Of a stretch of 64,000 nucleotides of DNA, positions 4,852 to 33,153 are shown piece by piece. Position 1 is the stretch's first letter. Each line of letters opens with the position of its first letter. The DNA comes from a virus: positions 77,285-141,284 of IMG/VR virus record IMGVR_UViG_3300023094_000009. One strand, 5' to 3'. Under the pieces are notes generated by a model. That model saw only the letters and a list, made by a program, of their open reading frames with translations. It did not search any database and was not told the DNA's origin. Both the position numbers and the translations under genes were made by a program.

Positions 4852-7800
4852 TTACAAAAATTGAAATTTTTAAGTCCTGCTTTTTCATTTACAGTGTTGA
4901 CTGCTGATTGTGTTGCTGACTTTTTCTTTTTATCCTGTGTTTCGGGCGTTTCCTCGATAACAGTTTCAATTGAAGCCAAGTCAAACTTGATTTTAGGACT
5001 TACAAAAGGGGCAGACATGTCCAGACTTATTGTTACATTTCCTATCAACGCCTCTGCAATGGAAGTTCTAGAATCATTCCACCCATCTACACTGCTAAGA
5101 TACTGCTTTTCGCTCAATTGGGAAAATAAGTTGTCAAAAGCTTCACTGCTCAATCCGTTGCCTAAATCAATGAAGGCATTCCCTGTCTGTGTTACATCTA
5201 TTCCAGCTCTGGCTAAAATTGAATTAAGTCGTATGGCTTTCTCTGATCCTTCCAAAGTCTCATTGTTGAACAACCCTTGGAATTCATTCAAATCAATTGG
5301 AGAAGCATTCCTAGACACTCTCACAGGGAAAGCAATATGTTTCACTCCTTGACGGATAATGACAACAGGTGTTTTTGAACTTCTGTTTGCAATAACTGCT
5401 GTGTTGATGAAAGTCTTGTCTATACTGTCAATGCTTGTTCTAGTGTAAAGCTTTCCATTCTGTACATAACCAATATCAGCAATCTTGTCTAGGTCTTGCT
5501 CCCTGATTGGTCTTGATTGTCTTAGAACCACATCTTCATCAATGATTGTATTGAAGTTAGGAAGTCCTGCATAGACGTTTTTAACCTTGATTGTGTATTC
5601 AGAAGGGGTTTCGTTATTGTTCAATATTAAGCTCATAAGAAAAGCATCATCGTTTGCAATTTCCCTTCTTAGAGATGCAAACTTTGAATCATCGCCCTTG
5701 AATCTTCCTGTATCGTCTCCTTTTGTTCCTTTCAATACTTGAACGTTGGCTGTATCTGCATTCATTGCTGTTATTCTCAGCTCTGTTGCAATTCTTGTCC
5801 TTAGTTCAGGAGAGATTCTTAAAGTTGTCGATTGGCTTTCCTTTGCCTCAATCGTGTTTTCTGCTTTCTCCCTGATTGTCGCCGTCAAATCCCTTACTTG
5901 TTGCGTCTTCTTGTTTATCTTGGATTGGTTTGCTGTTGTCTTTGGAAGATTGTTCAGACTAAGAAGTTCAGCTTGTAATTTTATTACAGTTTTGTTTTTA
6001 TTAAGGTTTTTCTGGAATTCCAGTTCTATTGCGTTCTCTCTCTGCTCATCCGTTATGATACTATTTGCATTCTCTCTGATTATGGCATCAAAGATAGACC
6101 TATTCCAATCATTGTTTGGATCAACAGCTAGTGTGAGGATCTCTCCGTCCCTTACATTGAAAACATCTTCCCTGCTTATATCATTATCGTAATCTGAATT
6201 GAGCGGAACCCAAGATTGAACTCCATCCATGGAAGTTACACTTTTCCTGATCATGGAATAGTAGGTGGAAGTTTCATCCACTGAGCTGGACGTTATCCGA
6301 ATTTTACCTGCCTGATTTATCCTGTCCACAATTTCTCTTGTAATCTTGAAAGCTTTGGTTACAGGATCTTCTTCAACTTCCGTTTCCAGAATTTCCACTC
6401 CGGTTAATGCTATGAAGGCATCTAAAGTGTAGTTGTGAATACTTGTCAATACCACTCCATTCTCTAAAACTTCTTGTGAAACTGCTACTTCATAGTTCTG
6501 CCCAACAGCTAGATTCCTGTTTTGGGATTTATTGACTATTCGTGCATCTTCAATCACTTCTTCGTCTGTTGCTTCTACTACATCAGGAGCGAAATCCACA
6601 GGACTGTTTTCAAGAGCGACCAATTGTTTTATCAAGTCTGAAAGTTCAAGCTGATCCCTTGTTGTACCTAAAATAGATATCCACTGATTAACTTGATTCT
6701 CTAGAGTTTCAAATTCATCCTGTTCGTCCAGAGTTAATGTTCCTTGATTTACTCTTTTCTTTAGTAGCTTTAGATAGCTTTTATACCCTTCACTTTCCAA
6801 GAATTTAAAAGGAGTTCTGAGGTCATTGTTTTCAGTTTCTTTTGCTTCGATTTCTTGTCTTCTGCTCTCAATTTCACTTTCGGTGTTAATTGGAACTACG
6901 CTGTCAACTACCTCTACAACTTCTGAATTTGTGAATAACTCAACCATTTTAGGGTTGGCTCTAAATTCACTTCCATTTCTATCCATTACAATAGTATCAC
7001 CATCAATAGCTGTCACTGTTGAGATCCTACCAGTGACATCTCTTAGAGTCTGTCCAACTTGAACTTCACTTGCATTTTCAATAGCTTGAGGTTGTCCTAT
7101 TTGTGTTATCTCAAATGTGGCACTCCTTCCATCACGGCTAACCTCTGTCAATAAACCTTTATCAACTGCTCTTTGGTGCATTGCTTGTGCTCCATCTCCT
7201 GCCGAAACTGTAGAAATGGTTGTCACGCCTTGATTACTCATAAGCTCAATCAGAGCTTCAAACATAATGCTTCCAGAGCCTTGACCCACTTCATTGGCTG
7301 AAATACCGTCAATCCTGAATTCTGTTGGAGAAATTAGTACTCCCGAAAGAAGTCCCAATTCATTCCTGAACTCATACAATGTGCCATCTTCTACTTCTGT
7401 GGTTATTGGTTCTCCTAGAATATTAGATTGCTCCTCGTCTACTTGAGGAGTTACTATTCCATTTTCAATGTCAGAAATCTCTTTCTGCAATTCCTCTATT
7501 CGAGATTGGTTTTCTCGTATTTTTCTTAAATTTTCGAGCGTAGGCTTGTTTGTAATTATATCAATTTCGTTGGTGATATCTTCAATAAGACTGCTTAATT
7601 CCTCAATGTTGTTAATTGCGATTCGTGCATTTGTTGGTGCAGATTCTATGCTGTCACCTGTATCCTCTATAGTAACTTCTTCTAATGGTAAAATTGCTTG
7701 TTGGCTTTCTTCTACCCGTCTTTGTATTGCATCATAAGCAAACTGTGCACGAAGCATTGACTCAATCTTGAATTTTTCCCTTTCAGACAAGTCCGTGTTT

Positions 7801-10505
7801 TCACTCAATATTTGCTCAAACTGAGTGATAAGGTCATCTCCCCTGTATCCAATTTTTTCAAGGATTGGATTGATTGTTGCCTCATTTGCTCTCAGTTCTT
7901 TTTTCGCCTCTTCCGACATTGAATACGGAGAGCCAAGAATTGAACTTATTAGTCCTTTGCCTTCCCTTGAAGAATAGAAATTGGTTGCTGCCATTCTTCG
8001 TATGGTATCTGAAGCATTTGCTTCTAAAGCCAAATACCCGTCAAACTGATCTAAAAGAAATTCCAACTCCCTTGCTTCTTTTGTCTTTCCTGTAGCTCTT
8101 AGGGTTTCTACATATTGATTTAGACTTGCATATCTTTCTGATAGTTGATTGATAGTGGGAACTTGTGAAGTTTCACCATAAGATATTGTTTCCAGCCTCT
8201 TGTTCAGAGCAGTTTCTAAAACTTCCTGCCTTGCGGTGCTCTTTATTAGCTGGTTTGATAGAGCAACTTGTTTTTTAGATAACTCCTTTGCCAGCACTTC
8301 ATTGCCCTCAACTGATTGCATCTGTGCTCCAACTTCTGCAATTGCCGTAGTAAGCTCAGCTATTTCATTCTTAGTCTGTTCATATTCTGCATAGGCATTG
8401 TCTTGTTCATTCTGTAATTCATTGAAGAACTTTAAAGTACTGTAAGCACCTTCCTCTCCTGTCAAGGCAGAAATGTTGTCTCCGATTGTATTTACAATGT
8501 CCCCTGCCTTGAAACCTTGCATAAGAGCCAAAGTGGTAGCATCTTTCAATTCAATTACTTGCCCATTAGGTAGTCTGGAATTTTCAATACCTAAAGATTC
8601 AACTGTCTTGTTTGCTTTCTGGTACAATGTGTAGTCCCTCTGGAATCCAGCCTTTAGGGAATCTTTGTACTCCCGAACCTGTGCTTCACTTTCAAATCCC
8701 AAATTTCTTTGCTGTTCCTGCGTGAATTCCAATCCATCAACAGAAGCTTCGAAATCTGCAATTGTATCTGCATATCCCTTCAATCCTTCGTTTGCTTTTA
8801 TGAAGGAATAGTTAATTGCAGAATCTTCAAGTATAGTAAACTCTGCCTGATTGGTCTCCTTTGTTATCTGAAAATTACCAATTGAGTTTGCCCTGTTCAA
8901 GTCACGGAATTTTCCAATGTACTTGTTATATTCTTCAACAGACTTGTCAATGGAGTTCAATTGGGATGCGTAGCTGTTTTTACCTAGCCCCTGAACTCCA
9001 AAAGATGCGCCTTCCATTCCTCTTACACCTAAAGCGGTGAGAGGTTTTGAAATTGCTGCGCCTACATTTCCTCCTGCAAGTCCTATAATACCTCCAATAA
9101 CCACTTCCTTAAGTCCTTCCTTGGTTGTATATTGCTCCACAAAAGATTCTTGAAGTGCATTGGCAAAGGAGTGGATATCGGCTGTTTTAGGATCATATTT
9201 TGCTTCCAAATACTTGGACATTGTTTTACCAAAAACTCCTTGCAAGCCTTCTTCAACCACACCCTCCCTTAAAACAGGCTTGGAAACATTTACCGCTCTG
9301 CCCAGCATTCTCTGCGCCTTCGTACCTTTGCTGAACACCTTGGTTCCGTCTGCCATTGTTGTCACTGACCTTCCAAGAATACCATCTTCAATTCCCAGCT
9401 TTGGAAACTTGATCATTTTCAGATCAAACATTTTTGAATACATTGCAAAGTTTGTAACAGAAAGTAGTGCAGCATTTGCTCCAAATACCTTGTTGGCGGT
9501 ACTCTCTGCATCTTTCATGAAGGTTGTCAGGTCTTCTGCTGTAGGTAATTCTCCATAGGTGGTTTGATAATCACTGACATATTTATCTACAGCATCAGTG
9601 TAGCTGTGACGTGCTTCCATTCCGGCTTCAAATCCAACAGACTGACCCAAGAACCTTGCTGTCTTGAATACTTCCCCTGTACTTGCTCCTACATTTGTAG
9701 CTGTTGCAAATTTATCAATTGAACTTCTATTCAGTCTTCTTAGTGCGCGGGTTCCTATTTCCCTTTCTGCAACTCTTGTTGTTGCGGATATAAGGTCATC
9801 TGCATTATTTCTTGCTACATTTACAGCTATGTTATCGGCTGATTTTGCAAGTCCTTTAATTCCAAGTCTTGCTCCTGCTTTGGCAAATGAACTTGGTAAA
9901 GATGCACCACCAGATAAAATTGCAAGAGGAACTTCACTCAATACTGTTCCTGCCACAAAAGCAAGCCCATTTCCTACATCATTGAACCAGAAGTTAGCTG
10001 TACCCATTTGTCCCAAAAGACTTTTGGCTTTTTCTTCATTTGAATAATAGTGTGCAAAGTTTCTGTCCAATCTTTTTGATTGCTCGTCAAGAAAATTGGA
10101 TGCGTCATTATCCCACAAAGCAGAAAGCTCTCCCTGTGAGATTGCACTTCCTAGTCCATAGGTTACTGTCGCTAAAGCATCAGCTGCTATGAGTCCTGTT
10201 TTTCCTAGGAATTTCGTTACACCATTTCCTGCTTTTTCTCCCCAGCTTTGTTGTTGGGCTAGACGATCTTCATTATCAAAAGCTCCAAGATAGTTGTCAT
10301 ATTTCAAAGCGGAAACCCCGTACCTATCTGTTTCAGCAACAGCAGAGGTGGGAACATCATACTTCACATTCTCAATCCTACCCTTATCCCAAGGCATGTC
10401 AAGGACTCCTGAATATTGGAAACCTTGGGGTTTTACAGCACCTCTTGTACCTCTTGATTGCAGATCTGCTTGTAGCTTATTTAAAACTTCTTCGTTTGTT
10501 GGCAT
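4848..10505 (-). CDS. Giant virion cargo/ejection protein (1885 aa) with hydrophobic N-terminal segments, coiled coils and a GNAT-like insert
   Basis: Gly/Ala-rich hydrophobic stretches (GLAFVAGTVLSEVPLAILSGG; VVIGGIIGLAGGNVGAA), coiled coils, position downstream of tail genes as in crAss-like phages. Confidence 0.75.
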   Translation of the reverse strand: MPTNEEVLNKLQADLQSRGTRGAVKPQGFQYSGVLDMPWDKGRIENVKYDVPTSAVAETDRYGVSALKYDNYLGAFDNEDRLAQQQSWGEKAGNGVTKFLGKTGLIAADALATVTYGLGSAISQGELSALWDNDASNFLDEQSKRLDRNFAHYYSNEEKAKSLLGQMGTANFWFNDVGNGLAFVAGTVLSEVPLAILSGGASLPSSFAKAGARLGIKGLAKSADNIAVNVARNNADDLISATTRVAEREIGTRALRRLNRSSIDKFATATNVGASTGEVFKTARFLGQSVGFEAGMEARHSYTDAVDKYVSDYQTTYGELPTAEDLTTFMKDAESTANKVFGANAALLSVTNFAMYSKMFDLKMIKFPKLGIEDGILGRSVTTMADGTKVFSKGTKAQRMLGRAVNVSKPVLREGVVEEGLQGVFGKTMSKYLEAKYDPKTADIHSFANALQESFVEQYTTKEGLKEVVIGGIIGLAGGNVGAAISKPLTALGVRGMEGASFGVQGLGKNSYASQLNSIDKSVEEYNKYIGKFRDLNRANSIGNFQITKETNQAEFTILEDSAINYSFIKANEGLKGYADTIADFEASVDGLEFTQEQQRNLGFESEAQVREYKDSLKAGFQRDYTLYQKANKTVESLGIENSRLPNGQVIELKDATTLALMQGFKAGDIVNTIGDNISALTGEEGAYSTLKFFNELQNEQDNAYAEYEQTKNEIAELTTAIAEVGAQMQSVEGNEVLAKELSKKQVALSNQLIKSTARQEVLETALNKRLETISYGETSQVPTINQLSERYASLNQYVETLRATGKTKEARELEFLLDQFDGYLALEANASDTIRRMAATNFYSSREGKGLISSILGSPYSMSEEAKKELRANEATINPILEKIGYRGDDLITQFEQILSENTDLSEREKFKIESMLRAQFAYDAIQRRVEESQQAILPLEEVTIEDTGDSIESAPTNARIAINNIEELSSLIEDITNEIDIITNKPTLENLRKIRENQSRIEELQKEISDIENGIVTPQVDEEQSNILGEPITTEVEDGTLYEFRNELGLLSGVLISPTEFRIDGISANEVGQGSGSIMFEALIELMSNQGVTTISTVSAGDGAQAMHQRAVDKGLLTEVSRDGRSATFEITQIGQPQAIENASEVQVGQTLRDVTGRISTVTAIDGDTIVMDRNGSEFRANPKMVELFTNSEVVEVVDSVVPINTESEIESRRQEIEAKETENNDLRTPFKFLESEGYKSYLKLLKKRVNQGTLTLDEQDEFETLENQVNQWISILGTTRDQLELSDLIKQLVALENSPVDFAPDVVEATDEEVIEDARIVNKSQNRNLAVGQNYEVAVSQEVLENGVVLTSIHNYTLDAFIALTGVEILETEVEEDPVTKAFKITREIVDRINQAGKIRITSSSVDETSTYYSMIRKSVTSMDGVQSWVPLNSDYDNDISREDVFNVRDGEILTLAVDPNNDWNRSIFDAIIRENANSIITDEQRENAIELEFQKNLNKNKTVIKLQAELLSLNNLPKTTANQSKINKKTQQVRDLTATIREKAENTIEAKESQSTTLRISPELRTRIATELRITAMNADTANVQVLKGTKGDDTGRFKGDDSKFASLRREIANDDAFLMSLILNNNETPSEYTIKVKNVYAGLPNFNTIIDEDVVLRQSRPIREQDLDKIADIGYVQNGKLYTRTSIDSIDKTFINTAVIANRSSKTPVVIIRQGVKHIAFPVRVSRNASPIDLNEFQGLFNNETLEGSEKAIRLNSILARAGIDVTQTGNAFIDLGNGLSSEAFDNLFSQLSEKQYLSSVDGWNDSRTSIAEALIGNVTISLDMSAPFVSPKIKFDLASIETVIEETPETQDKKKKSATQSAVNTVNEKAGLKNFNFCK

Positions 10506-10514
10506 AGTTATTTT

Positions 10515-10544
10515 CCCTTTGGCATTAAATCACTAAAATGTACC
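10515..10544 (+). repeat. Left terminal inverted repeat
   Basis: CCCTTTGGCATTAAATCACTAAAATGTACC versus reverse complement of right end CCCTTTGGCACTAATATACTAAAAAGCACC. Confidence 0.75.
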
Positions 10545-10588
10545 AGACAAAATGCTGATTTTTAGTCTTTTATGCGTATTTTTTTGAA

Positions 10589-10596
10589 TAAAGTTA
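10589..10596 (-). promoter_or_regulatory. Candidate outward-facing promoter (TAACTTTA) near the element left end
   Basis: TAnnTTTA variant also precedes genes at 19337 and 33177; points toward the 1885-aa gene. Confidence 0.35.
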
Positions 10597-10602
10597 TTAA
10601 TT

Positions 10603-11013
10603 TTATCTGATAAATCTGCCAAAAAAGACATTTCTTTCAGAGTTTATCGGATGTTTTTTTATCCATTCATCATATGTTTCTAACGAATCAAGTCTTTTTT
10701 CGAACTTGTCCATCCCTGAAGTGACAAATTCTTCTGAGTAATCCTGAAGGCATACATTATCTTCTCCCTGAATAAGCATGTCCATGCTGTCAACCTTGAA
10801 TTTGTAAGATTCTCCCAAGTAATGAAATTCGTATTCTGTCAGTTCTTTATATTTAACCTTGTTTTCTATTTCCCGCGCCAGAGAAGAAAGTTTGTCAGCA
10901 TCGTAACTTTCCTGTTTGCTTCTATGTAGTATTGTTCTTAAAATGCTACTTTTAAGTCCAGATTCCCGATCTTTGAACTGTCGGCGTACACTAACTGTAA
11001 ATTTATTTTCCAT
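10603..11013 (-). CDS. Hypothetical passenger protein (136 aa)
   Basis: ORF with natural charged composition inside the element. Confidence 0.65.
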   Translation of the reverse strand: MENKFTVSVRRQFKDRESGLKSSILRTILHRSKQESYDADKLSSLAREIENKVKYKELTEYEFHYLGESYKFKVDSMDMLIQGEDNVCLQDYSEEFVTSGMDKFEKRLDSLETYDEWIKKHPINSERNVFFGRFIR

Positions 11014-11311
11014 GAATGATTATGTTAAAGAAAGAGATGTTGAAAAAGCCACTGGCCTGAGAGCTATACACTATTCCTATCCTTCTGGACAAGGGCTCTT
11101 ATACCTAACTGGTTATTTCATTGTAGAGAGATTTAAGATCTCCTCTAAGCTAAGTCTGGATTATAAGCTGACTCAAATTCTCGATGTTGTTGATTATATC
11201 GAAACAGGTGTAGTTAAAAGTACAAAGGTATATTCTTTAGAAGGCGATGAACTGCTATTGTCATCTCAGAATCCCCTTCCACTATTACCTGAATATGTTG
11301 TAAAAGAATAG
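11012..11311 (+). CDS. Hypothetical passenger protein (99 aa, MNDYVKERD...)
   Basis: ATG at 11012 within track ORF 10916-11311; the upstream part is the antisense shadow of the 136-aa gene. Confidence 0.5.
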   Translation: MNDYVKERDVEKATGLRAIHYSYPSGQGLLYLTGYFIVERFKISSKLSLDYKLTQILDVVDYIETGVVKSTKVYSLEGDELLLSSQNPLPLLPEYVVKE

Positions 11312-11338
11312 CAACTACATTCTGTTGTCTTAAGGCGG

Positions 11339-11388
11339 GGTGTGAGATCACTTAAATGTACCAGCTAAGATACTGGTTTTTAGTTTTT
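11339..11388 (+). repeat. Internal direct copy of the element left end with conserved hairpin
   Basis: 11349-11388 CACTTAAATGTACCAGCTAAGATACTGGTTTTTAGTTTTT versus 10531-10570 CACTAAAATGTACCAGACAAAATGCTGATTTTTAGTCTTT (33/40). Confidence 0.75.
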
Positions 11389-12331
11389 AAGATTTATTCT
11401 GAATAGTGCTATTTTTTAACCAAATTTTGAAATGATTACTGCCAATGAATTTAAGGACTGTACTTTTGTCAAACAGTATAGTCAATAAGTGGTATGCTGT
11501 TAGTACATATTCTTGAAGATCTTGAGAGTCCTCTAAATCTTCAACACAAAGGCCTTGGCTTTTAGCCTCGATCCGATCAATCCTTCTTCCATGACTTTTC
11601 TTTTTGTGACCATCTACTGAACCACGGCTAAAGTGTGCAGAGACAGCTTCGCTTTTCTTTTTAGCTCCTGCTATCCCCTTAAATACATAACTCTCCAACC
11701 AATCTGCTACAATTTGTTCAGAATATTCAACAGCGTTTTGGGACTCTTGAAGCAATGCTGGCCCCATTGTTGAGAGTGTGGGTGCCCATAAGTGAGCTTG
11801 AACGCTATTTTCTAAAATATCCTGCTTTGCTCTTTCAAACTGATCAATTATGGCTAAAGCAGAAACAAAGCGTCCGTTAAGGTTCATTTGTGGATCAATT
11901 GGCCCTAATTGGCTTTGCCTTCCCATAATGATTCTATCACAAGAAAGACTTATCATAGTACCTGCGGACATCGCATAAGTAGGTATAATTACTTCAATAT
12001 CCTTAAATTTGGATCTAAGATACGAAACAATAGTTTCTGTCGCATTTGTAACTCCTCCAGGTGTATGGAGTAGTATGGTTAGACCTTTTGTGAAATCCAT
12101 TCCATGTATGACGGACATAAAGCCATTTATGTCCTCTGATGTAATTGATAAAGTCCCTTGATTTGCTGTGGGTTTTTGGAGAAAAGCTGAAGCATAAAAA
12201 ATCACATTCCTACCTTCCCTAAGTGTAGAGATTTTGTTAAGCTCTTTTACAAGGTTATCAACTAACCAGTTGACCACGACGTCTTTATCTAAAGTTTCTA
12301 CCTTGGAAACTAAATCTGTCCATGAAGGCAT
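11387..12331 (-). CDS. SDH-family (Clp/crotonase-fold, S49-like) serine protease
   Basis: Motifs LHTPGG, AMSAGTMI (catalytic Ser), LGPIDPQ (Asp), SHGRRI (His). Confidence 0.88.
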   Translation of the reverse strand: MPSWTDLVSKVETLDKDVVVNWLVDNLVKELNKISTLREGRNVIFYASAFLQKPTANQGTLSITSEDINGFMSVIHGMDFTKGLTILLHTPGGVTNATETIVSYLRSKFKDIEVIIPTYAMSAGTMISLSCDRIIMGRQSQLGPIDPQMNLNGRFVSALAIIDQFERAKQDILENSVQAHLWAPTLSTMGPALLQESQNAVEYSEQIVADWLESYVFKGIAGAKKKSEAVSAHFSRGSVDGHKKKSHGRRIDRIEAKSQGLCVEDLEDSQDLQEYVLTAYHLLTILFDKSTVLKFIGSNHFKIWLKNSTIQNKS

Positions 12332-12525
12332 TAGCGTAGTGTGATATTAAGTGGATAACTAGCGTCTCTGTACAACGATTCATCTTGTATACATTCCTTT
12401 GTAATTTGTAACAGATCATAGGAATTTAATTCAAGATATACATTGTATTGAGCTGATACCTCATTTAGTATCACTGTGATATCTTTATTTTTGGGATATT
12501 CTTTATTTGATTCGAGTGAATTCAT
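12331..12525 (-). CDS. Small protein translationally coupled to the SDH protease (64 aa)
   Basis: TAATG stop/start overlap with the protease gene. Confidence 0.65.
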   Translation of the reverse strand: MNSLESNKEYPKNKDITVILNEVSAQYNVYLELNSYDLLQITKECIQDESLYRDASYPLNITLR

Positions 12526-12610
12526 GTTATTCAGTGTGTTGGTTTCTGCAAAGAAACAATTTTTAAGTTATTGTTGGACTACCACTCATCACTAATTAAT
12601 GATATTTCTA

Positions 12611-12745
12611 TTACTTCTCTTTCTTAGGCTTCACCACAACCTTCTTCAGAACCTCGCTAAAGCCTTCCTTCAGTTCTTTGTCACCATACTTCTTGGTGAG
12701 CTGTTCGTCCGATAAAGCTTCTTTCTTTTTCTTCTTTTCTGCCAT
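12611..12745 (-). CDS. Small basic protein (44 aa) downstream of the transposase
   Basis: Hand-translated MAEKKKKKEALSDEQLTKKYGDKELKEGFSEVLKKVVVKPKKEK; TAAATTTA box a few nt upstream. Confidence 0.5.
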   Translation of the reverse strand: MAEKKKKKEALSDEQLTKKYGDKELKEGFSEVLKKVVVKPKKEK

Positions 12746-12851
12746 AGGGCTTAAATTTACTGAATCTGTTGCTTGACAGACATGTATTTAACTTCCATTT
12801 AACCTTTTAAAGGTACGGATAGTCCTTGTTTATTCCAAATAAATGGCTTTG

Positions 12852-13814
12852 TTATACATTTTTTGAAATGAGGTCTTTGTATTTCAGTCTTTTTTGTGCC
12901 ATTTTCACGAGAGAGTTATTAAACTTTTGCCCTGCGTTGTCTTCGCGCCCGTTGAACCGGAAAGACATCTCATCACAATACATCTGAAGATGCTTGCGGG
13001 AAACATGGAAATAGGTTCCCTTGATGCTCCTCTTTAAATGACTCCAGAAATTTTCTACATTGTTGCTTGAGAAACCGCTTTCCGTGGCATACTGTTTCAG
13101 GTTGTGGTTTACATACTGGTGGTCATAGTCTGCATTAAGTCCTGTGTATCCCATCCATTCATCTGTTACGATTGTAGCTCCGGCTTGCACCAGTTCTTTC
13201 ACCAGTGGCTTCAAAGTTTCTCCCTGCGTATTTGGAATAACTCTTGTATATATCTTGTTGTCCTGTATCATTCCAAACACTGGAGTTTTATCCTTGTAGG
13301 ATCTTCCTTGCGAATTTTTGACTTTCTTGTTTTTGTGGCGATTTTTGTTGCTGCCTCCTACAAAGCTCTCATCCATTGTAGCAACAGAAAGAGACTTTTC
13401 AGGAATAGCCTGAACATAGGATGCACGAAGCCTGCTTAACATGAACCAAGCAGTCTTTTGTGTAACTCCAAGGTCTTCTGCAAGCTGATAAGAACTGATT
13501 CCACGCTTGTGAGAAGCGAAAATAAATATGGCGATAAACCATGTCCTTAGAGGAATCGGGGAACTTTCAAATATGGTTCCCACTCTTATGGTGTATCTCT
13601 TTTTACATCCTCCGCATTTGTATAATCCGTTGAACTCTCCTTTTACATTCAGTTTGTATTGCTTTGTTTCCTTGCAATGAGGACACACTGGATTACCTTG
13701 CCAGATTGTGTTCTCAAGATATTCCCTGCAAGATGTTTCATCTGGCAATTGCTTCAGCATTTGAACTAATGATTTGAACTCTAGATTATACATAACTTCA
13801 AGTTTTAAATACAC
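12852..13814 (-). CDS. IS1595-family (ISXO2-like) DDE transposase; likely start ATG 13793
   Basis: Zn ribbon CPHC...CGGC, HTH GISSYQLAEDLGVTQKTAWFML, catalytic MDES, VTDE, NNVENFWS and YCDEMSFRFN motifs. Confidence 0.93.
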   Translation of the reverse strand: MYLKLEVMYNLEFKSLVQMLKQLPDETSCREYLENTIWQGNPVCPHCKETKQYKLNVKGEFNGLYKCGGCKKRYTIRVGTIFESSPIPLRTWFIAIFIFASHKRGISSYQLAEDLGVTQKTAWFMLSRLRASYVQAIPEKSLSVATMDESFVGGSNKNRHKNKKVKNSQGRSYKDKTPVFGMIQDNKIYTRVIPNTQGETLKPLVKELVQAGATIVTDEWMGYTGLNADYDHQYVNHNLKQYATESGFSSNNVENFWSHLKRSIKGTYFHVSRKHLQMYCDEMSFRFNGREDNAGQKFNNSLVKMAQKRLKYKDLISKNV

Positions 13815-13949
13815 TGAGAAGTTACGATATTTTACTGGAGTTCCCTAGCTTTTTAACATTAGTTACGTGTAATTATAATAAATTGTTATTTATCCACATT
13901 TCGTTTTTGATTAATATTCTGTCATATCTTTGATGAATAAATCATCCGA

Positions 13950-14546
13950 ATGTGTTATCAAGTAAGACAAACTTCAAGTAAAAAGGATATTGAAAGAAGG
14001 TTTAGTGCCGATTTCCTTACTGTTATTCCTGATTATCAGCGTGAAGAAGTGAGTGGTTTCACGCATCCAAAAATGCCTGTTATTGCTAACAGCATGGTTG
14101 ACAAAATACAGCTTTTTCAATGGGGACTGATTCCGCAGAACCAGAAAAATACACTGAATGCAAGAATTGAAACAATAAGGGAAAAACCGTCCTTCAGGAA
14201 TTTTGTAAACCAGAAATGTCTGATACTTGTTAATGGCTTCTATGAGTGGAAGCATGTACCGGGAGAGAGGCATGACAGACATAAATACCTTCTTTCGTTG
14301 CCTGACAACGGATCATTTGCTCTTGCGGGATTGTGGAGCGAATGGGAATTCCTGAATGGAGAGAAATATAGAACCTTTACCGTCATTACTACAGAAGCCC
14401 AAGGTATAATGAGAGAAATACACAATACTAAGCTCAGGATGCCTGTTATACTCAAAAGGGAAATTGAAATGGATTGGCTTATGGGTAAGCGTACAGCTAA
14501 GCTTCATACGGATTTGGTTGCTACCAAGATTTTCCCTTTATTCTAG
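13950..14546 (+). CDS. SOS response-associated peptidase (SRAP/YedK/HMCES family)
   Basis: Catalytic Cys2 (MCY), WGLIP, NARIET, GFYEWK, IHN..RMPVIL; TATCTTTG promoter at 13925-13932. Confidence 0.92.
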   Translation: MCYQVRQTSSKKDIERRFSADFLTVIPDYQREEVSGFTHPKMPVIANSMVDKIQLFQWGLIPQNQKNTLNARIETIREKPSFRNFVNQKCLILVNGFYEWKHVPGERHDRHKYLLSLPDNGSFALAGLWSEWEFLNGEKYRTFTVITTEAQGIMREIHNTKLRMPVILKREIEMDWLMGKRTAKLHTDLVATKIFPLF

Positions 14547-14773
14547 TTAAACAAATCTTTAAGCTCTACGTCCAGCGCTTTTGATATTTTGATAAGAGTC
14601 TTTACTGTTGGATTCTGTTTTCCGCGTTCAATCTCACCTAACTTGGATAATGGTACACCAGAATCAATGGATAAGTCAAGTTGCCTCATATCTTTTTCCA
14701 TACGAAGAAACTTAATCTTGTTCCCAAGATCTAACAAGTAGTGGTCATCATTCATTTGGGTACAATAAAGCAT
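14543..14773 (-). CDS. XRE-family HTH transcriptional regulator
   Basis: LGNKIKFLRMEKDMRQLDLS...LGEIERGKQNPTVKTLIKISKAL is a classic HTH_3 pattern. Confidence 0.92.
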   Translation of the reverse strand: MLYCTQMNDDHYLLDLGNKIKFLRMEKDMRQLDLSIDSGVPLSKLGEIERGKQNPTVKTLIKISKALDVELKDLFN

Positions 14774-14793
14774 ATTTAGTTGAAAGACAACAA

Positions 14794-14888
14794 CCCTTAT
14801 AAGGAATATAGGCTAATTTATATCCATTATTTTTAACACATAAAATAGTAATTTGTTTTATTTTTAACTATTAACACCCTTATAAGGG
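14794..14888. promoter_or_regulatory. Two palindromic operator-like sites CCCTTATAAGG(G/A)
   Basis: 14794-14805 and 14877-14888 in the divergent intergenic region; the second lies just upstream of TAACTTTG (14898-14905). Confidence 0.7.
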
Positions 14889-14951
14889 ATATTTGTCTAA
14901 CTTTGTATAGGTTTGACATACTTCAGTGTTAGGCTTTTATTGCCACTTATT

Positions 14952-15191
14952 ATGAAAAAGCTACTTATTATCACTTCAGTTTCTTTATTAATCCTCTCTT
15001 CCTGCAACAAGGACTACAATTGTGTCTGCTCGCTTTATAACGAACAAGGGCAAACCGTAGCAACTGAAGAATACAATTCAACTCAGTACAAGAAAAAGGA
15101 TAAAGACGAGGCAGAGAAGAGTTGCAAGGATCGCGATGTTGCGCCTAATGGGGCGTTCGGTGAAATGGGTCGTAAATGTGAGCTGAGATGA
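14952..15191 (+). CDS. Small lipoprotein
   Basis: ATG 14952: MKKLLIITSVSLLILSS-C lipobox; four more Cys in the mature part. Confidence 0.8.
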   Translation: MKKLLIITSVSLLILSSCNKDYNCVCSLYNEQGQTVATEEYNSTQYKKKDKDEAEKSCKDRDVAPNGAFGEMGRKCELR

Positions 15192-15760
15192 CATCTACAA
15201 AAACTATCAGAAATGATTTTACAAACGAGGAAAAACTTGCTTGTCTTACAGTACTTCACCTACTGATTGAATCAAGTGAGCCTCGATTTAAAAATACAAG
15301 AAAAGGTGTGCTTATTCATAATGCCAAACTATTTGGTGTGTATGACTTTATGTTAGAAGAATACATAGAAAATGTGACTTCAGAATCCTTGAAGAAAGAC
15401 TTATCATTAAGCAACACAAAAGTGGAGTATCTTATAGCTATGACTTATGAGATGCTAAACTCAGCAGGGTTTACCAAAAACGATATAGTGAACGCAGAAA
15501 ATCTATTCCTTAGAGCTGTAGGTGTAACTCCTGATGAACTTCATGCATCTTTAGAAAGAGTTAGAATTTTTACTAAAAAGTTTAACGAAAGGACTCATGC
15601 AAGTCAAGTACATCCTTCAAACAATGCTGTAAGTCGTACTTATCAAAGAATGGCAATTCAAGCTCAAGATCCTAATCAAAATAGCTTTTCTTTGAACAAC
15701 ATTGTATTCATTATTTTCACCGCTTTAGCTATTTTGGGTCTTGTAAGTCTGTGTAGCTAA
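15188..15760 (+). CDS. Membrane-anchored protein, possible TerB-like helical domain
   Basis: Helical pattern reminiscent of TerB/DjlA-N; C-terminal hydrophobic helix IVFIIFTALAILGLVSL. Confidence 0.55.
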   Translation: MTSTKTIRNDFTNEEKLACLTVLHLLIESSEPRFKNTRKGVLIHNAKLFGVYDFMLEEYIENVTSESLKKDLSLSNTKVEYLIAMTYEMLNSAGFTKNDIVNAENLFLRAVGVTPDELHASLERVRIFTKKFNERTHASQVHPSNNAVSRTYQRMAIQAQDPNQNSFSLNNIVFIIFTALAILGLVSLCS

Positions 15761-15797
15761 AAGCTTATTTTTGTGATAACTCTAAATAATAATCGCT

Positions 15798-16112
15798 ATG
15801 AAAGAAGAAAATTTGAAAACACTCAATGAAAAATACAACACTATTTTAAACGATTTTAAAACCTTCGCTGAAAATTATGAAGGTAAAAATCTTAGTGAAG
15901 ATTTCCAATCTGAGTTTAAGGAGCGGTACGACGATATTAGTTCTAGTTTTTCAGATATTATACGCAGACAAGTTAAAGTATCAAAAGAGGAGGGTGTTCA
16001 TGTTATAGAAAACCTTCCAATCTTAAAAAACATACACAGATTAAATAACATTCTTATGATGACATACGAAGCTTATTTAAAGGTCGCCTTCCATGAGAAG
16101 GCTGTAAACTAA
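15798..16112 (+). CDS. Hypothetical helical protein (104 aa)
   Basis: ORF with TATTTTTG promoter at 15766-15773. Confidence 0.65.
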   Translation: MKEENLKTLNEKYNTILNDFKTFAENYEGKNLSEDFQSEFKERYDDISSSFSDIIRRQVKVSKEEGVHVIENLPILKNIHRLNNILMMTYEAYLKVAFHEKAVN

Positions 16113-16304
16113 CTTAGGTGTCATAAAAACTCTCATAGGACTGTCTGATTCAATAAGCATCCTGTTCAAGCTAAATACCATATCTTGAATGCGTGTGTGC
16201 ATCAAGGTTTCTGGTGAATGTTTTGATTGTTGTTTTTTGATAAACTCTAAATGTTCTTCTGATTCGATTCCAACTGTGAATCTTTCAATATATTTTTCTT
16301 CCAT
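16077..16304 (-). CDS. Hypothetical protein (~75 aa), convergently overlapping the 104-aa gene
   Basis: ATG 16304 (MEEKYIERF...) preceded by A-rich leader; 36-bp tail-to-tail overlap. Confidence 0.45.
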   Translation of the reverse strand: MEEKYIERFTVGIESEEHLEFIKKQQSKHSPETLMHTRIQDMVFSLNRMLIESDSPMRVFMTPKLVYSLLMEGDL

Positions 16305-16348
16305 TTTTCGGCGAAATTCCGGCAAAAAACTGAAAAAACAACTTACGC

Positions 16349-16378
16349 GGTGCTTTTTAGTATATTAGTGCCAAAGGG
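16349..16378 (-). repeat. Right terminal inverted repeat
   Basis: GGTGCTTTTTAGTATATTAGTGCCAAAGGG, inverse of 10515-10544. Confidence 0.75.
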
Positions 16379-16399
16379 TTAATATAAATTTTGTTGATG

Positions 16400-16407
16400 C
16401 AAAGATA
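16400..16407 (-). promoter_or_regulatory. -7 promoter box TATCTTTG, probably the native promoter of the 1885-aa gene
   Basis: Perfect consensus, 21 bp outside the right inverted repeat, pointing into the element. Confidence 0.65.
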
Positions 16408-16449
16408 TGTATTTATCTTTGATGTGGTTGTTAATGAAATGTTATTTGT

Positions 16450-19317
16450 TTACTCTACTATAAATAAATTTTCCAAATACTTAGAAAATAATTCTTCTTT
16501 AATTTGCTTCGACTTTCCGTATATTTCAGGAACGTCCCCACTGACGGATAGAATCTCTTTACCTGTATCACCAATAGAAATTTCTTGTCCTTGGCTGTTT
16601 TTCATTACATAATGGTAAGTTTCACTACCTTCGATAGGCTTTACGTAAAACTTAGTATTACCGTCATAGAAGTTGTAAACGAGTGTATTGAGTTGTTGTA
16701 AGGCTTGTGGATTATTTGATGCTTGTCTCTGTGCCTCTTGAATATTATTAGTCAACAATGCGCTTGGCTTAGAATTCCTGCTGTCGCCTTTTGGGTAATT
16801 GGTGTACCCACTGGCACCCAACTCAATACTACCTGCCCTCTCTTTAAGAGTTGTGTTATATGGAGAGTTGTAATAGTCTGCTGCATTTATACCTAATTCC
16901 TTTGAAGTAAACATCAATGGAGTTGTACCATCTTTCATTGTAACTTTTTGCTTAACAGTCTTTTTTTCTTGACCTGTTCCAGTGGTTACATCTGTCCACA
17001 AAGTCCAATTATCCGTAACTCTCCCATCTTTTATTTCTGGATATAATTGAGGGATTCCTTTCGTATCAATTGCGTATTTGGTGGATATTAGTTTTTCTGT
17101 CTTAGATCCTGGTTGTATGTTTAGCGGTGTGTAACTTAATTCTACCGATTTATTAGCCATAGCCACAGAGGTCAGTCTGTTTACTGCTGACAATCTGGTA
17201 TTTAGTGTACCTCCTACATCACCCCATCCATCAGTCCACCCCAGACCTGATAGTTCTGTGTCTTGCGTGAATAGTGTTCCATACTCAGGATTATCACCAT
17301 TATCTCCTATCATATCTCCTCCGTACCCGTTCAAGCCAGATTCTTCTTTGGGAGGTAAGTATCTGCTTACAGCTGGCATTGTATTTACAGCTTTAACTCC
17401 TAATTTTTTTACAACCTCCTCCTGTAAAGAAGCATACATCTGTTGCTTTTGCCATGTCCCCGCTTTTACACCTTTATCTGATATAATACCTTTGGTTGTA
17501 TAAGTTTTCAAGGTCATTTCCTCTTCAGGAGTTAATTTCAATCCTTTGGTGGATTTGTACATGAGAAGTTTGTAATTGGATGTTTTTGCGCCTGGCATTA
17601 TTCCATCCTTATATATGTAATTTCCATTAGAGGATTTTTCAAAATAGAAATTCTCTTTGGTAAAGTTCAATCTTCTTTGCTGATCCCCACTTTCACTATA
17701 ATGCTTAACTAAATCAGCTGTTGTTGCATCTATCAGTTTAGTATATTCCTCCCTTGCCTTTCTTGTAGGGGCAGAACCATCTATCATTGTTTTTTTGAAG
17801 TTATCCAATGCAGTATAGACCTGTGCCCTATTCTGGTCATTTATGGTTATTTTTTTACCTGCAATTTCTATTTCTTGCAGAGTTCCAATATCTACATTTG
17901 TAAGATCCTGTACTAATTTCGCGGTGTTACCTTTACCCATAATGCCTCCAACCAAGTCATTCACGCCTTTGACAGCTTCTCTTTGAAATTCTGCCTCTCG
18001 TTGAGTTTGACTGTATTCCCCCCTTTCTTCACTTCCTATCACTTCAGAGGCTCCATATTGTATGTCACCTAAGTTTACTCCTGTGGCATTAGGATCAGCA
18101 AGAGTTCCGTCTTGCATTGCTTTTATCATATTAAGCTCTAGTTGTTGAGATCGTATCAACAATCCTTCTCTGCCCTGTTGCTCCATTTCTTGGGCATGTC
18201 TGACACTCTCTTCATACTTTCGTATATTGAGTTTTACATCTTCAACCTTAGTTTCCGTTATTCGGGGAGGTTGATAATTCAATGAAGTGAGATTTTCAAA
18301 TTCTACTTCCCTGTTAAATGTTTTGTATACATTTTGATATTTGACTGGATCTACAAATCCATTTTGGTCTATTACTTCACTGTCAAAGTTCCTTGTCTTG
18401 TTATTTTCAAGGGTCTGTGTCAATTCAGCTATTCTGCTCTGTACTTCTTGCTTGTCCCTTCCTTCAGGTAGTTTTCTCAACTCGCCTTCTAAAATATCTT
18501 TTTCCTGAGAAAGGCTTTTATTCAGATTATCATAGAGGCTGTTATAGTTATTTCGTAGGTTATCTACCACCATAGGATTGCTTTCATCGCCATACTTAGC
18601 CCAAGCATTTATATCCATTTGTCTTACCCCATCTTCTCCTATCTGAGCTAAAACAGCTTGTTTTAATCGGTTTTTATCTGTTGTTCCTTCATAGGTGTTT
18701 ACATAGTCGAAATAATAACCTCCATCTGCTCTTTGTACATATTTTGCATTGATACCTAAATTCTTCAAAGATTCTTGGAAGCTTTTATCCATCAATTTCT
18801 TAGGGTTATCAGAATAGGCAATAAAACCACCTCCGCCATTATATACAGCATTGGGATCTGTTGAATTCATGTAATCGTTCCATCCCTGTGAGGCATAAGC
18901 AAAGTTGACATCACTGTAACTTCCATCATTCTTTTTTCTTGCTTCCTGCCATTGAGGGACTTCCCCTTTATTTCTTAAAGCGGTTGATGCTACACCATTA
19001 TAAACCCTTTCATCAATACTTTCTTTCAGTTTTGACGTGAGTTGGTTCATGAGGGCTGGGTTTGATATGTCTCCTCCAGCAAATTGGTTTACGATATTGA
19101 CAGTTTGTTGTAGCCTTTCTTGGAAGTATTGTTTATCTATTGGTCTGGCAACTTCAATATCCAAGGCTAATTCTTCTTGCAAAGAAAGGAGTTTTTCTCT
19201 ATTTTCATTAACCTGTCCCTGCATTGAAGCCATCCCAAGCCTTAAAAGCTCCTTGTTACCAAAATGGAATAGCGGAATGCCACTGTAATTATTTAATGTT
19301 GAAACACTACTTGCCAT
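16450..19317 (-). CDS. Virion cargo protein (955 aa)
   Basis: Cys-free, helical N-terminus, position among crAss-like internal proteins. Confidence 0.75.
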   Translation of the reverse strand: MASSVSTLNNYSGIPLFHFGNKELLRLGMASMQGQVNENREKLLSLQEELALDIEVARPIDKQYFQERLQQTVNIVNQFAGGDISNPALMNQLTSKLKESIDERVYNGVASTALRNKGEVPQWQEARKKNDGSYSDVNFAYASQGWNDYMNSTDPNAVYNGGGGFIAYSDNPKKLMDKSFQESLKNLGINAKYVQRADGGYYFDYVNTYEGTTDKNRLKQAVLAQIGEDGVRQMDINAWAKYGDESNPMVVDNLRNNYNSLYDNLNKSLSQEKDILEGELRKLPEGRDKQEVQSRIAELTQTLENNKTRNFDSEVIDQNGFVDPVKYQNVYKTFNREVEFENLTSLNYQPPRITETKVEDVKLNIRKYEESVRHAQEMEQQGREGLLIRSQQLELNMIKAMQDGTLADPNATGVNLGDIQYGASEVIGSEERGEYSQTQREAEFQREAVKGVNDLVGGIMGKGNTAKLVQDLTNVDIGTLQEIEIAGKKITINDQNRAQVYTALDNFKKTMIDGSAPTRKAREEYTKLIDATTADLVKHYSESGDQQRRLNFTKENFYFEKSSNGNYIYKDGIMPGAKTSNYKLLMYKSTKGLKLTPEEEMTLKTYTTKGIISDKGVKAGTWQKQQMYASLQEEVVKKLGVKAVNTMPAVSRYLPPKEESGLNGYGGDMIGDNGDNPEYGTLFTQDTELSGLGWTDGWGDVGGTLNTRLSAVNRLTSVAMANKSVELSYTPLNIQPGSKTEKLISTKYAIDTKGIPQLYPEIKDGRVTDNWTLWTDVTTGTGQEKKTVKQKVTMKDGTTPLMFTSKELGINAADYYNSPYNTTLKERAGSIELGASGYTNYPKGDSRNSKPSALLTNNIQEAQRQASNNPQALQQLNTLVYNFYDGNTKFYVKPIEGSETYHYVMKNSQGQEISIGDTGKEILSVSGDVPEIYGKSKQIKEELFSKYLENLFIVE

Positions 19318-31323: not shown

Positions 31324-32060
31324 CTAACTGTTGCTGATTTTTGATTCTCATCCATATTCGGATTTTCATCTTTTGGGATTGAAACCACTGTTGACATTAA
31401 TTCTTGTAAAGTCATTGCCCTTACATTTTCAAGTAGGAGATCTGTTATAGGAAATTTCATATCCCACAAAGACTTACAATCATCTTTTTTCTTCTTGTCT
31501 CCGCATCCACAGTCTTCCACTTCCTCTTCATTTATGGCAATCATTCGGATTTTAACTGCTTCAATGTATTCAGTGATGAAAAGGTGTCCGTCTTCTATAA
31601 AATAGAAATAATCGTTTCCCGGTTTCTTGTATTTTAATTTTTTGCGGTTTTTAATCAATTCTGGGGTGGATGAGATAAACTCAATACTGTCATCAATGGA
31701 GTTAATAGAGAAAATAGCAATACCTGTCCTTCCATAAATTGTTTCAGGTATTTTACTAGTGGACTTCATTAATGTATTGCAATTGCTCAAATCAACAGAA
31801 CAACATTCAATCCTGTCAACTTCTTCCATCTCAAAACAAGGGATGACAGAAATAAGATCAAAAGCATTTCTGAGCTTGAATTCATCTACTCTCTGTGCTA
31901 GAAGCATCTTTGCTTTTGACTTCCCTATGTGTAGAACGCTTCGTCTGCTAACCCACGTATCTTTGGACAACATTTTCAGCTCATTTATAATCCCTGATAC
32001 AAAATCACCATTTGTGGCACCTCCCATACTTGATGAGCTTCCTTTTAAATTATTTTTCAT
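31320..32060 (-). CDS. Tail ring/structural protein (alternative start 32027)
   Basis: YFYFIEDGHLFI and C-terminal PKDENPN motifs; synteny. Confidence 0.7.
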   Translation of the reverse strand: MKNNLKGSSSSMGGATNGDFVSGIINELKMLSKDTWVSRRSVLHIGKSKAKMLLAQRVDEFKLRNAFDLISVIPCFEMEEVDRIECCSVDLSNCNTLMKSTSKIPETIYGRTGIAIFSINSIDDSIEFISSTPELIKNRKKLKYKKPGNDYFYFIEDGHLFITEYIEAVKIRMIAINEEEVEDCGCGDKKKKDDCKSLWDMKFPITDLLLENVRAMTLQELMSTVVSIPKDENPNMDENQKSATVR

Positions 32061-33153
32061 AATTCTCTATTAGCGATTGCCCTCGCTGTTTAATTGTTAA
32101 ACTTGCTTCAAAGTCTGCATTACCTTCATGATTGCATTTTATACATTTGAAGCTCTCTTGTGTTTTTCTGTTCTCCTTTGAGATGTGTCCACACTTTGAG
32201 CATTCCTGTGAAGTGTATTTAGCATCTACCTTAATTACATTTGTTTTGTAAGATAAATATTTTCCAAATTTGTACCAACTGACATCCGAGATAGATTTTG
32301 AGTAATTCTTATCTTGAATCATTTCTGAAATTTTCAAGTCCTCTACAAAAACTGTTTGATAATTGTTAGCTAAACTTCTTGAGACTTTATGCAAGTAATC
32401 CTCTCTAACTCTCTGGATTTTTAAGTAAACTTTTTTTACTTTCTCCACCTCCTTGTAAAAATTATTAGATCCTTTTTTCTTTAGAGATAATTTTCTTTGA
32501 ACTTCAGCTAATTTATCTGCATATTTTTTGGTTGTTTTTATATTTTCAAAAAACTTACCCTCAGAGGTAGCTACAAAATGTTTAATTCCTAAATCAATTC
32601 CTACTTCTGCTTGATTCTTGCATTTTTGGACTTCATGGTCGGTAATTATTTGTAGGTAGTACCCATCTGCTTTTTTGACTACTCTTGCTAATTTTATGTT
32701 TCCACTTATTTCTCTGCTTTTAAATATTTTTATTTTTCCTATTTTAGGTAAGATAAATCTACCATCTTTTTCAAACCTTAAACTGTGATGATTAGTTTTA
32801 GTATTTCCTTGCTTGAATTCTATGGATTTCCAATCTTTCTTTTTAGCCCATTTTGGTGGATTTGTTTTAACACCTTTTTTTAAATCTGCATAAAATTTAT
32901 CGTATCCTCTATATAATCTTTCGATAATTCCTTGTAGTGTATGAGATTGGACACCCTTAATCCAAGTAAATTCCTTTTTTAGTGCAGGTAGTTGTTTCAT
33001 TAAATCAAACTTACCTAAGCTTAAACCTTGTGAATAAGCATATTCCTTTGTTTCTTTCGCTAAATTATACACACAACGAGTTGTATTTAAATGGTCTTCA
33101 AACTTTTGTGTTAAAGTATGGGTTGTTTTTATTTTAAAGGTGTATGTGAGCAT
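32050..33153 (-). CDS. tnpB: IS200/IS605-family RNA-guided endonuclease TnpB (solo, no tnpA)
   Basis: RCVYNLA N-terminus; RuvC GIDLG, VEDL, NADFEAS; Zn finger TSQECSKCGH...FKCIKCNH; visibly more AT-rich than flanks. Confidence 0.93.
   Translation of the reverse strand: MLTYTFKIKTTHTLTQKFEDHLNTTRCVYNLAKETKEYAYSQGLSLGKFDLMKQLPALKKEFTWIKGVQSHTLQGIIERLYRGYDKFYADLKKGVKTNPPKWAKKKDWKSIEFKQGNTKTNHHSLRFEKDGRFILPKIGKIKIFKSREISGNIKLARVVKKADGYYLQIITDHEVQKCKNQAEVGIDLGIKHFVATSEGKFFENIKTTKKYADKLAEVQRKLSLKKKGSNNFYKEVEKVKKVYLKIQRVREDYLHKVSRSLANNYQTVFVEDLKISEMIQDKNYSKSISDVSWYKFGKYLSYKTNVIKVDAKYTSQECSKCGHISKENRKTQESFKCIKCNHEGNADFEASLTIKQRGQSLIENYEK

Follow-up and report, generated by a model that had tools for sequence, protein, structure and literature searches.

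The 64,000 nucleotides (nt) analysed here, hereafter the window, represent the 3' 64 kb of the 141,284-bp IMG/VR virus record IMGVR_UViG_3300023094_000009 and are spanned by a long minus-strand operon of very large genes. Between the gene encoding a virion protein of 955 amino acids (aa; 16450-19317) and that encoding a virion protein of 1885 aa (4848-10505), this operon is interrupted by 5.94 kb harboring about 11 smaller open reading frames (ORFs) on both strands; most of this insert (10521-16372, 5852 bp, with ends GG...CC) very probably corresponds to an insertion sequence (IS) of the IS1595 family loaded with passenger genes, i.e., a transporter IS (tIS). The 1885-aa protein matches phrog_32390 and is 36% identical over 411 aa (E 3e-58) to gp038 of phage phi4:1, a structural protein supported by tandem mass spectrometry (MS/MS), while the 955-aa protein, whose relatives in public assemblies share 39-74% identity with it, gives a weak match to the syntenic gp039 of the same phage. 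No close relative of the 955-aa protein was found in IMG/VR or in the JGI metagenomes, and a megablast search for near-identical DNA against phage records gave no match. Among isolates, the phage is best matched by phi4:1 and phi17:2 of Cellulophaga (genus Lightbulbvirus; 36%) and by csAssE-Sib, a gut phage (34%). The crAss-like signal consists of one weak match to the Pfam family crAss_MUZ, on the homologue of the 2296-aa protein in a related contig (L163); the label "crAss-like" that an earlier reading of the bare sequence (the original prediction) had attached to this genome seems true only in a loose sense, the nearest isolates being Lightbulbvirus.

In five related lineages (P0003, P0004/L175, P0005/L164, P0008/L177, and P0010/L179) the site is empty: only 2-4 nt separate the stop codon of the preceding gene from the start of the 1885-aa homologue, and the junction reads TAA AAT ATG. 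In phi4:1, gp039 and gp038 (both annotated as structural on the basis of MS/MS proteomics) are likewise syntenic and overlap by 14 nt. Because the flanking genes of the empty-site relatives are 2-4 nt apart or overlapping, about 5.94 kb must have been inserted precisely into the 3-nt spacer of a stop-AAT-ATG junction, leaving both flanking proteins intact; the N-terminus of the 1885-aa protein aligns to those of two relatives (P0019 and P0020), and the C-termini of the 955-aa protein and its relatives align as well. The empty sites thus bear out the clean insertion between two virion genes that had been predicted. The same relatives speak against the idea that the element had come to lie between a virion gene and its promoter, since neither the five lineages nor phi4:1 possess a promoter between the two genes. 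As the genes are coupled in every empty-site relative, a promoter is not ancestral at this junction, and the promoter-like stretch outside the right end cannot be the original promoter of the 1885-aa gene.

The transposase of the insert (Table 1) is above the cut-offs of three models, that is, PF12762 (DDE_Tnp_IS1595; 1.2e-42, 146 bits, cut-off 27), PF12760 (N-terminal zinc ribbon; 9.7e-12, 45 bits, cut-off 25.4), and NCBIfam NF033547 (189 bits, cut-off 75). Its frame is free of internal stops and agrees with an alignment of 18 sequences, 17 of them relatives, in each of the 74 invariant columns, including D141, D211, and E247; the gene is the sole copy in the genome, and DNA similarity to other transposase loci is limited to the transposase gene. 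In a phylogenetic tree the window sequence groups with L181 and then joins the pairs L083+L182 and L183+L185, with a support of 96-99%; the clade that holds the window sequence has 99% support and mixes phage with bacterial contexts. Each of these two pairs unites a viral contig with a bacterial-type context, the "viral" labels being those of IMG/VR, which may include prophages; in the surrounding clade of 23 rows, every row from a named genome belongs to Bacteroidota.

A repeat search disclosed that the longest inverted repeat in the region 9500-17500 joins 10509-10544 to 16349-16384 (36 nt, 78% complementary). All coordinates of the original prediction proved correct. The motif CCCTTTGGCA was found exactly where it had been placed, starting at 10515, at a distance of 9 nt from the ATG of the 1885-aa gene, and again as an inverted copy ending at 16378, 21 nt from a TATCTTTG box; these are the only two exact copies in the 141-kb genome, on which ground CCCTTTGGCA was rejected as a general phage motif. 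In the terminal 100 nt of the insert, delimited independently by the empty sites, the inverted match scores 15, the maximum of 2000 shuffles being 14.5. Comparison with related elements allowed the boundaries to be sharpened to 10521-16372: since 8-bp direct repeats abut the ends of those elements, the termini were placed at GG/CC, so that CCCTTT and a further TATT fall outside the true transposon ends. The end at 10521 aligns with the element ends of L083, L084, L086, L182, L183, and L185. The two terminal repeats of the window are identical at 18/24 positions, and the right one reads AGCACC where the clade has an almost invariant TGTACC. A scoring matrix was built from 10 foreign ends, with the window excluded; over the 141-kb genome, the window ends rank first and second (Table 1; shuffled genomes reach 10.5-19.6) and are inverted around its only IS1595 transposase. 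The distances of the window ends from the insertion borders, which were defined independently, are no more than 15 and 77 nt.

The third-best match of the end model lies outside the window (G000:C1:30772, GGAATTGACTTACTTGAATATTCC, score 17.0), far from any transposase, and may be a chance match or a solo end. Tight repeats immediately around the transposase were searched for by local alignment, both in 12400-14100 and in 70 relatives, and were discarded since nothing rose above chance; the ends lie kilobases away. Scans of the collection with the window-specific repeat pattern and with the junction pattern returned no matches. Hairpins at or near the ends fold no better than shuffled sequences (z from -1.3 to +1.1), and their role as terminators or structured sites was rejected on this basis.

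The same type of 24-bp end (GGCAyTrAyATAyT....TGTACC) flanks 14 related elements, 2.6-5.5 kb in length. They include those around the closest transposase relatives (L083, 67% identical, ends at 5192/9950; L086, 4958/8480; L084, 5937/9957), those of L182, L183, and L185, and eight further ones (L005, L007, L010, L017, L064, L087, L089, and L092) from named Bacteroidota (Prevotella, Cryptobacteroides, Myroides, and Bacteroidales), one Saccharibacteria genome, and viral contigs. An association of the repeats with IS1595 transposases elsewhere, proposed beforehand as a check, was therefore found, also in Bacteroidota chromosomes. All 14 elements are long and cargo-bearing. Some are located on viral contigs (L084/L085, 4021 bp; L086, 3523 bp; L083, 4759 bp; and L185, 3424 bp) and others in bacterial DNA (L182, L183, L017, L007, and L010, the last being a 5459-bp element of Prevotella sp. 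CAG:755). Perfect 8-bp direct repeats, always AT-rich, abut the ends in 10/14 of them. This matches the IS1595 family, which duplicates 8 bp of its target; a candidate subgroup is the ISNwi1 type, with ends of the form ggnnatTAT and an 8-bp duplication, a consensus that the GGCAATTATATAC or GGCAATAATATA of the relatives fits.

The related elements resemble that of the window in the 24-bp end consensus, in the transposase (47-67% identical), in being long and loaded with cargo, and in the frequent presence of XRE-type helix-turn-helix (HTH) genes; they differ from it in the cargo itself and in their mostly perfect duplications and near-identical repeats, and most of them look recently mobile. 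L087 and L089 are closely similar elements (4557 and 4712 bp) that occupy different sites with different duplications, and therefore mobility can be seen in the relatives; moreover, the breakpoints of the contigs L184 and L186 coincide exactly with ends of elements. In the genome of L185, a distantly related 131.7-kb phage contig encoding a 38% homologue of the 1885-aa protein, a 3424-bp transporter IS (7900-11323), whose 24-bp repeats are perfectly identical and which likewise has no target duplication, is embedded in a region of small genes, and the contig L186, from another sample, begins exactly at the end of this element.

As for the passengers of the relatives, L084 carries an N6 methyltransferase and a type I specificity subunit, L086 a fused methyltransferase-specificity protein, and L087 a protein of the UDG superfamily. 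L010 (4741-10199) and L017 (5121-10400) both harbor a PvuRts1I-like/SRA modification-dependent restriction enzyme and are bordered by perfect 8-bp duplications, L010 also having perfect 24-bp repeats. L181, whose transposase is 83% identical to that of the window, shares with it only the transposase, the 76 nt upstream, and the 41-aa ORF downstream (DNA homology over 12621-13890, 75% identity), its other cargo being different; with the transposase relatives as a whole, the shared cargo amounts to the 41-aa ORF plus weak HTH and lipoprotein matches, HTH genes being present also in the elements of L083, L181, and L185. A conserved core with a variable cargo is the rule in this clade. In the window, the space between the terminal repeats (10545-16348) holds about 10 genes, encoding an SOS-response-associated peptidase (SRAP), an SDH-type protease, an XRE regulator, a lipoprotein, a TerB-like protein, and several products with no function assigned. 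The predicted IS1595-family transposon with cargo is upheld by these passengers together with the transposase scores.

The age of the insertion can be approached through L163, a contig from another sample (Logan, SRR28413666) whose neighboring protein is 74% identical. It harbors the same 65-nt stretch outside the right end, followed by TTAACCCTTTGG and by a diverged repeat start, where the contig terminates. Since the junction is common to two lineages in which the neighboring protein is only 74% identical, the insertion is apparently old, inherited, and tolerated, which does not agree with the suggestion that it acts as a switch or a lesion on virion production. The prolonged residence in the host that had also been suggested cannot be inferred, since a tyrosine integrase was looked for in the phage and not found, and related elements occur in phage and bacterial DNA alike. 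The window copy itself looks immobile: it is single-copy, its repeats have diverged, and a target duplication is lacking, so that it probably represents a fixed island that no longer jumps.

On this basis, a probability of about 85% may be assigned to the reading that 10521-16372 is an IS1595-family transporter IS that entered the virion-gene spacer before the split from L163, was inherited thereafter, and is now probably a fixed accessory island. The element would consist of a DDE transposase with a zinc ribbon, 24-bp terminal repeats, and about 10 passengers, and would belong to a Bacteroidota-associated clade whose members (2.6-5.9 kb) choose AT-rich targets, produce 8-bp duplications, and reside in bacterial chromosomes and phage genomes. 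It would have landed in the 3 nt that separate two virion genes whose translation is coupled in every relative examined, and the insertion would predate the divergence of the window and L163; in the L163 lineage, the sequence after CCCTTTGG is expected to lead into the transposon and not straight into the homologue of the 1885-aa gene. Expression of the passengers might rely on Bacteroidota-type promoters of their own, as TAnnTTTG boxes precede the SRAP gene, the lipoprotein gene, and the 104-aa ORF by 17-46 nt; the passengers would probably behave as autonomous accessory genes transcribed by the polymerase of the host. Because 7/11 island ORFs point along the virion operon, the mRNA of the 1885-aa gene would most simply arise from transcription running through from these seven genes and from the operon upstream; since the coupling to the 955-aa gene has been lost, its translation would start independently at its own ATG.

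Several observations weigh against this reading. The L163 contig ends just 19 nt into the repeat, so that the presence of the whole element there is presumed. As had been predicted, no target-site duplication is visible: the 8-mers outside the repeats as first drawn (GTTATTTT and TTAATATA) are not a direct repeat, and those abutting the sharpened ends (TTCCCTTT and AAAGGGTT) match at 2/8 positions, with nothing better at offsets of 0-4 nt. To this must be added the low identity of the two repeats and the aberrant AGCACC. There is no second copy of the element in the 141-kb genome, and no island protein has a relative at 90% identity among about 15 billion proteins; for these reasons, the mobility of the window copy stays a candidate property. 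Lastly, the 12 nt outside each end (including 16373-16384) are inverted copies of each other at 10/12 positions, CCCTTT and AAAGGG abutting the termini, and L163 shows the matching flank on its visible side. Such inverted flanks cannot be produced by the staggered 8-bp cut of canonical DDE transposition; a non-canonical insertion in the center of a palindrome, a longer lineage-specific repeat, or a later rearrangement are possibilities.

The right flank, which carries a perfect TATCTTTG box facing inward, is absent from the empty-site relatives, the stretch with this box being found only in the window lineage and in L163. Since its sole paralogue, an extended 26-mer, is located inside the element, the stretch may derive from transposon DNA; alternatively, it may be a lineage-specific promoter older than the insertion. 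The similarity between 12740-12795 and 16373-16420 continues through AAATTTA and CCCT(A/T)TGGCA, the latter containing, in its internal copy, the start codon of the 41-aa ORF, and may be the remnant of a second element copy or the outcome of recombination at GGCA. With one paralogue, inside the island, the 26-mer around TATCTTTG was rejected as a general phage promoter consensus. At 16400-16421, two perfect TATCTTTG boxes stand back to back in a near-palindrome (CAAAGATA TGTATT TATCTTTG), of which only the inward-facing one is conserved in L163. As for the outward-facing TAACTTTA box to which a re-supplied promoter had been attributed (10589-10596, minus strand), it does exist, but the final G that is conserved in the -7 motif of Bacteroidota is missing, and the box represents weak evidence for a promoter.

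The flanks leave room for a history in two steps, a modified form of the original prediction, which is possible although rather doubtful. According to it, a promoter-bearing segment of about 80 nt with a palindromic center (TATTAACCCTTT/AAAGGGAAAATA) arose or was inserted first, and the transposon landed in the center of the palindrome, thus coming to lie between a lineage-specific promoter and the 1885-aa gene, with the outside promoter now reading into the element. This would account for the position of a TATCTTTG box and a 65-nt stretch beyond the canonical ends, for their conservation in L163, and for the inverted relationship of the flanks, which, if joined, would yield a leader of some 36 nt. 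In favor of this history is also the heptamer AAATAAC, present as a direct repeat on either side of the complete 5.94-kb insert; however, it could be due to chance in AT-rich DNA (about 0.1, by our own estimate). Moreover, no genome with the 80-nt segment and without the transposon was found, the five relatives and phi4:1 have no intergenic promoter at this site, and the only paralogue of the outside stretch, being inside the element upstream of the 41-aa ORF, hints at a transposon origin.

A bolder extension of the preferred reading, which we regard as speculative and unlikely, would make the clade a dedicated shuttle of conflict genes between Bacteroidota and large lytic phages, moving restriction enzymes, protective methyltransferases, DNA-repair genes, and possibly exclusion genes both ways; the window copy would then be a domesticated island, with the operon rewired around it and the palindromic junction as the scar of a non-canonical insertion into a hairpin site.

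It is improbable that the region is a recombination-built assemblage of morons, in which the IS1595 transposase is a mere resident and the outer repeats are not its ends. The passengers are indeed not common to the transposase relatives, except for the 41-aa ORF and a weak HTH match, the target duplication is absent, and one end has an internal partial duplicate; but variable cargo on a conserved core is usual in the clade, no tighter ends surround the transposase, and the repeats are close to the independent insertion borders. This explanation is largely refuted by the fit of the repeats to a family-specific 24-bp end consensus, of which they are the two best matches in the genome, and by the duplications of the relatives. 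Even less probable is an active switch, in which excision or inversion would toggle the production of the 1885-aa virion protein. The site is within an essential-looking virion operon, inverted repeats could allow inversion, and the outside box faces inward; nevertheless, the repeats are diverged (18/24), the element is single-copy, its junction is conserved over a deep divergence, neither an invertase nor an integrase was found, and the end hairpins fold like shuffled sequence. That a bacterial transposon was joined to a phage contig by the assembler can hardly be believed, even though the record is a metagenome assembly and the GC content is 0.31-0.37 in the island and about 0.40 in the flanks, because the flanks continue one operon in register with intact gene ends, the same proteins are found on one contig of 141,284 or 141,294 bp in three sources (JGI, Logan, and ENA), and the junction recurs in L163, from another sample.

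Transporter IS are already described for the IS1595 family in PMC3129680, which cites Siguier, Gagnevin and Chandler (2009). The preferred reading agrees with that kind of element in the single DDE transposase with an N-terminal zinc ribbon, the short repeats starting with GG, the passengers inside them, the kilobase size, and the AT-rich 8-bp target duplications, here found in the relatives; it departs from it in that the window copy has no duplication and has diverged repeats, carries cargo on both sides of the transposase, reaches 5.85 kb, and resides in a phage virion operon instead of a chromosome or plasmid. The island also resembles phage morons and accessory islands, since putatively autonomously promoted accessory genes, three or four of them preceded by TAnnTTTG boxes, are located between essential late genes without disrupting them, with the difference that the vehicle can be identified in the window as a DDE transposon with defined ends. 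The element is real and well delimited; what is unusual and informative is its location, the transposon itself being an ordinary one of an already known kind.

In the genomes of lytic phages, insertion sequences are generally regarded as rare and deleterious. In the present case, an IS loaded with cargo would have been kept through a deep divergence inside a virion operon with neither neighbor damaged, which raises the question of how the 1885-aa protein is expressed after the loss of coupling and with 5.9 kb of foreign transcription units upstream. The part worth following is the pattern of the clade, that is, shared ends, 8-bp targets, a cargo of restriction, methylation, and repair genes, and phage contexts interleaved with bacterial ones. 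As a vehicle defined by sequence (24-bp end consensus, 8-bp AT-rich targets), the clade could pass such genes between Bacteroidota and their phages, and for annotating these elements in gut and environmental viromes the end consensus is ready for use.

Table 1. Features of the insert and of the two flanking virion genes, in window coordinates.
Feature	Position	Strand	Remarks
1885-aa virion protein gene	4848..10505	minus	directly downstream of the insert; ATG at 10505; N-terminus intact (MPTNEEVL...)
Left flank	10506..10520		15 nt between ATG and transposon end: 9-nt leader (AGTTATTTT) + CCCTTT; absent from empty-site relatives
Terminal inverted repeat, end distal to the transposase start	10521..10544	plus	GGCATTAAATCACTAAAATGTACC; matrix score 19.8, second-best match of the genome
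Left subterminal segment	10529..10570	plus	duplicated at 11347-11388 (42 nt, 83% identical); fold z -0.6
136-aa passenger ORF	10603..11013	minus	in a cassette of about 820 bp between the two left-end copies; no match in Pfam, PHROGs, PADLOC, or NCBIfam
Internal partial left-end duplicate	11347..11388	plus	inner 16 nt of the repeat + 26 subterminal nt; outer 8 nt degenerate
314-aa SDH-type Clp-fold serine protease	11387..12331	minus	PF01972 3.5e-18; phrog_11747 1e-72; NCBIfam Clp_like_SDH 1.7e-23, under the cut-off of the model
64-aa ORF	12331..12525	minus	partner of the protease, whose start its stop overlaps; no match in Pfam, PHROGs, PADLOC, or NCBIfam
41-aa lysine-rich ORF	12623..12745	minus	directly downstream of the transposase; conserved core; tblastn 71% to L181, 59% to L182
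Promoter-like 26-mer	12767..12792	minus	only paralogue in the genome (20/26) of the stretch outside the right end; partly conserved in L181
IS1595-family transposase, zinc ribbon + DDE domain	12852..13814	minus	probable start ATG 13793, giving 313 aa
198-aa SRAP	13950..14546	plus	PF02586 9.7e-41; TAnnTTTG box 17 nt upstream
76-aa XRE-type HTH regulator	14543..14773	minus	PF01381 1.1e-10
79-aa putative lipoprotein, 190-aa TerB-like protein (lead only), 104-aa ORF	14952..16112	plus	TAnnTTTG boxes 24-46 nt upstream of the lipoprotein gene and the 104-aa ORF
75-aa ORF, possible gene	16077..16304	minus	first ORF downstream of the outside box; no match in PHROGs, PADLOC, or NCBIfam
Terminal inverted repeat, side upstream of the transposase	16349..16372	minus	GGCACTAATATACTAAAAAGCACC; matrix score 21.6, best match of the genome
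Right flank	16373..16449	minus	77 nt from transposon end to the 955-aa stop; AAAGGG + perfect TATCTTTG box at 16400-16407; present in L163
955-aa virion gene	16450..19317	minus	upstream of the insert; C-terminus intact (...ENLFIVE)

Concerning the internal structure of the element (Table 1), the duplicated segment at 11347-11388, which could be taken for a hairpin, more probably represents a partially duplicated left end. It scores below 10 with the foreign-only matrix and is therefore a copy of the element's own end and not of the family consensus. This duplication suggests growth of the element by end duplication or recombination between copies. In the cassette enclosed by the two copies, the available space is filled by two ORFs that start divergently at one CATG, the 136-aa ORF and, on the plus strand, 10916-11311 (99 aa if counted from the ATG at 11012); in other assemblies, the gene callers place a 60-aa product in the 10603-11311 region instead. 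A signal peptide and a Cys are visible in the translation of the putative lipoprotein. The TerB-like assignment is a lead based on TerB neighbors in a protein atlas (0.86 by features, TM-score about 0.5). The PADLOC defense-system models gave only generic HTH matches.

Further features were observed elsewhere in the window. A second, unrelated transposase of the TnpB/OrfB type (367 aa, 32050-33153, minus strand; phrog_506, 1.4e-87; PF07282 at 32092-32277) is present in the same structural-gene region, and in the relative L164 an OrfB_IS605 gene is located between two other virion genes (L164 5741-6940). These IS200/IS605-type insertions are similar to the IS1595 element in being tolerated between virion genes in this phage lineage, and differ from it in belonging to another transposon family and in consisting of a single gene with no cargo. 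The virion operon thus appears to tolerate mobile elements repeatedly. In addition, the 1018-aa large terminase (53691-56747, minus strand) contains a LAGLIDADG/Hom_end homing-endonuclease segment (residues 401-488), which looks like an intein or an inserted endonuclease domain.

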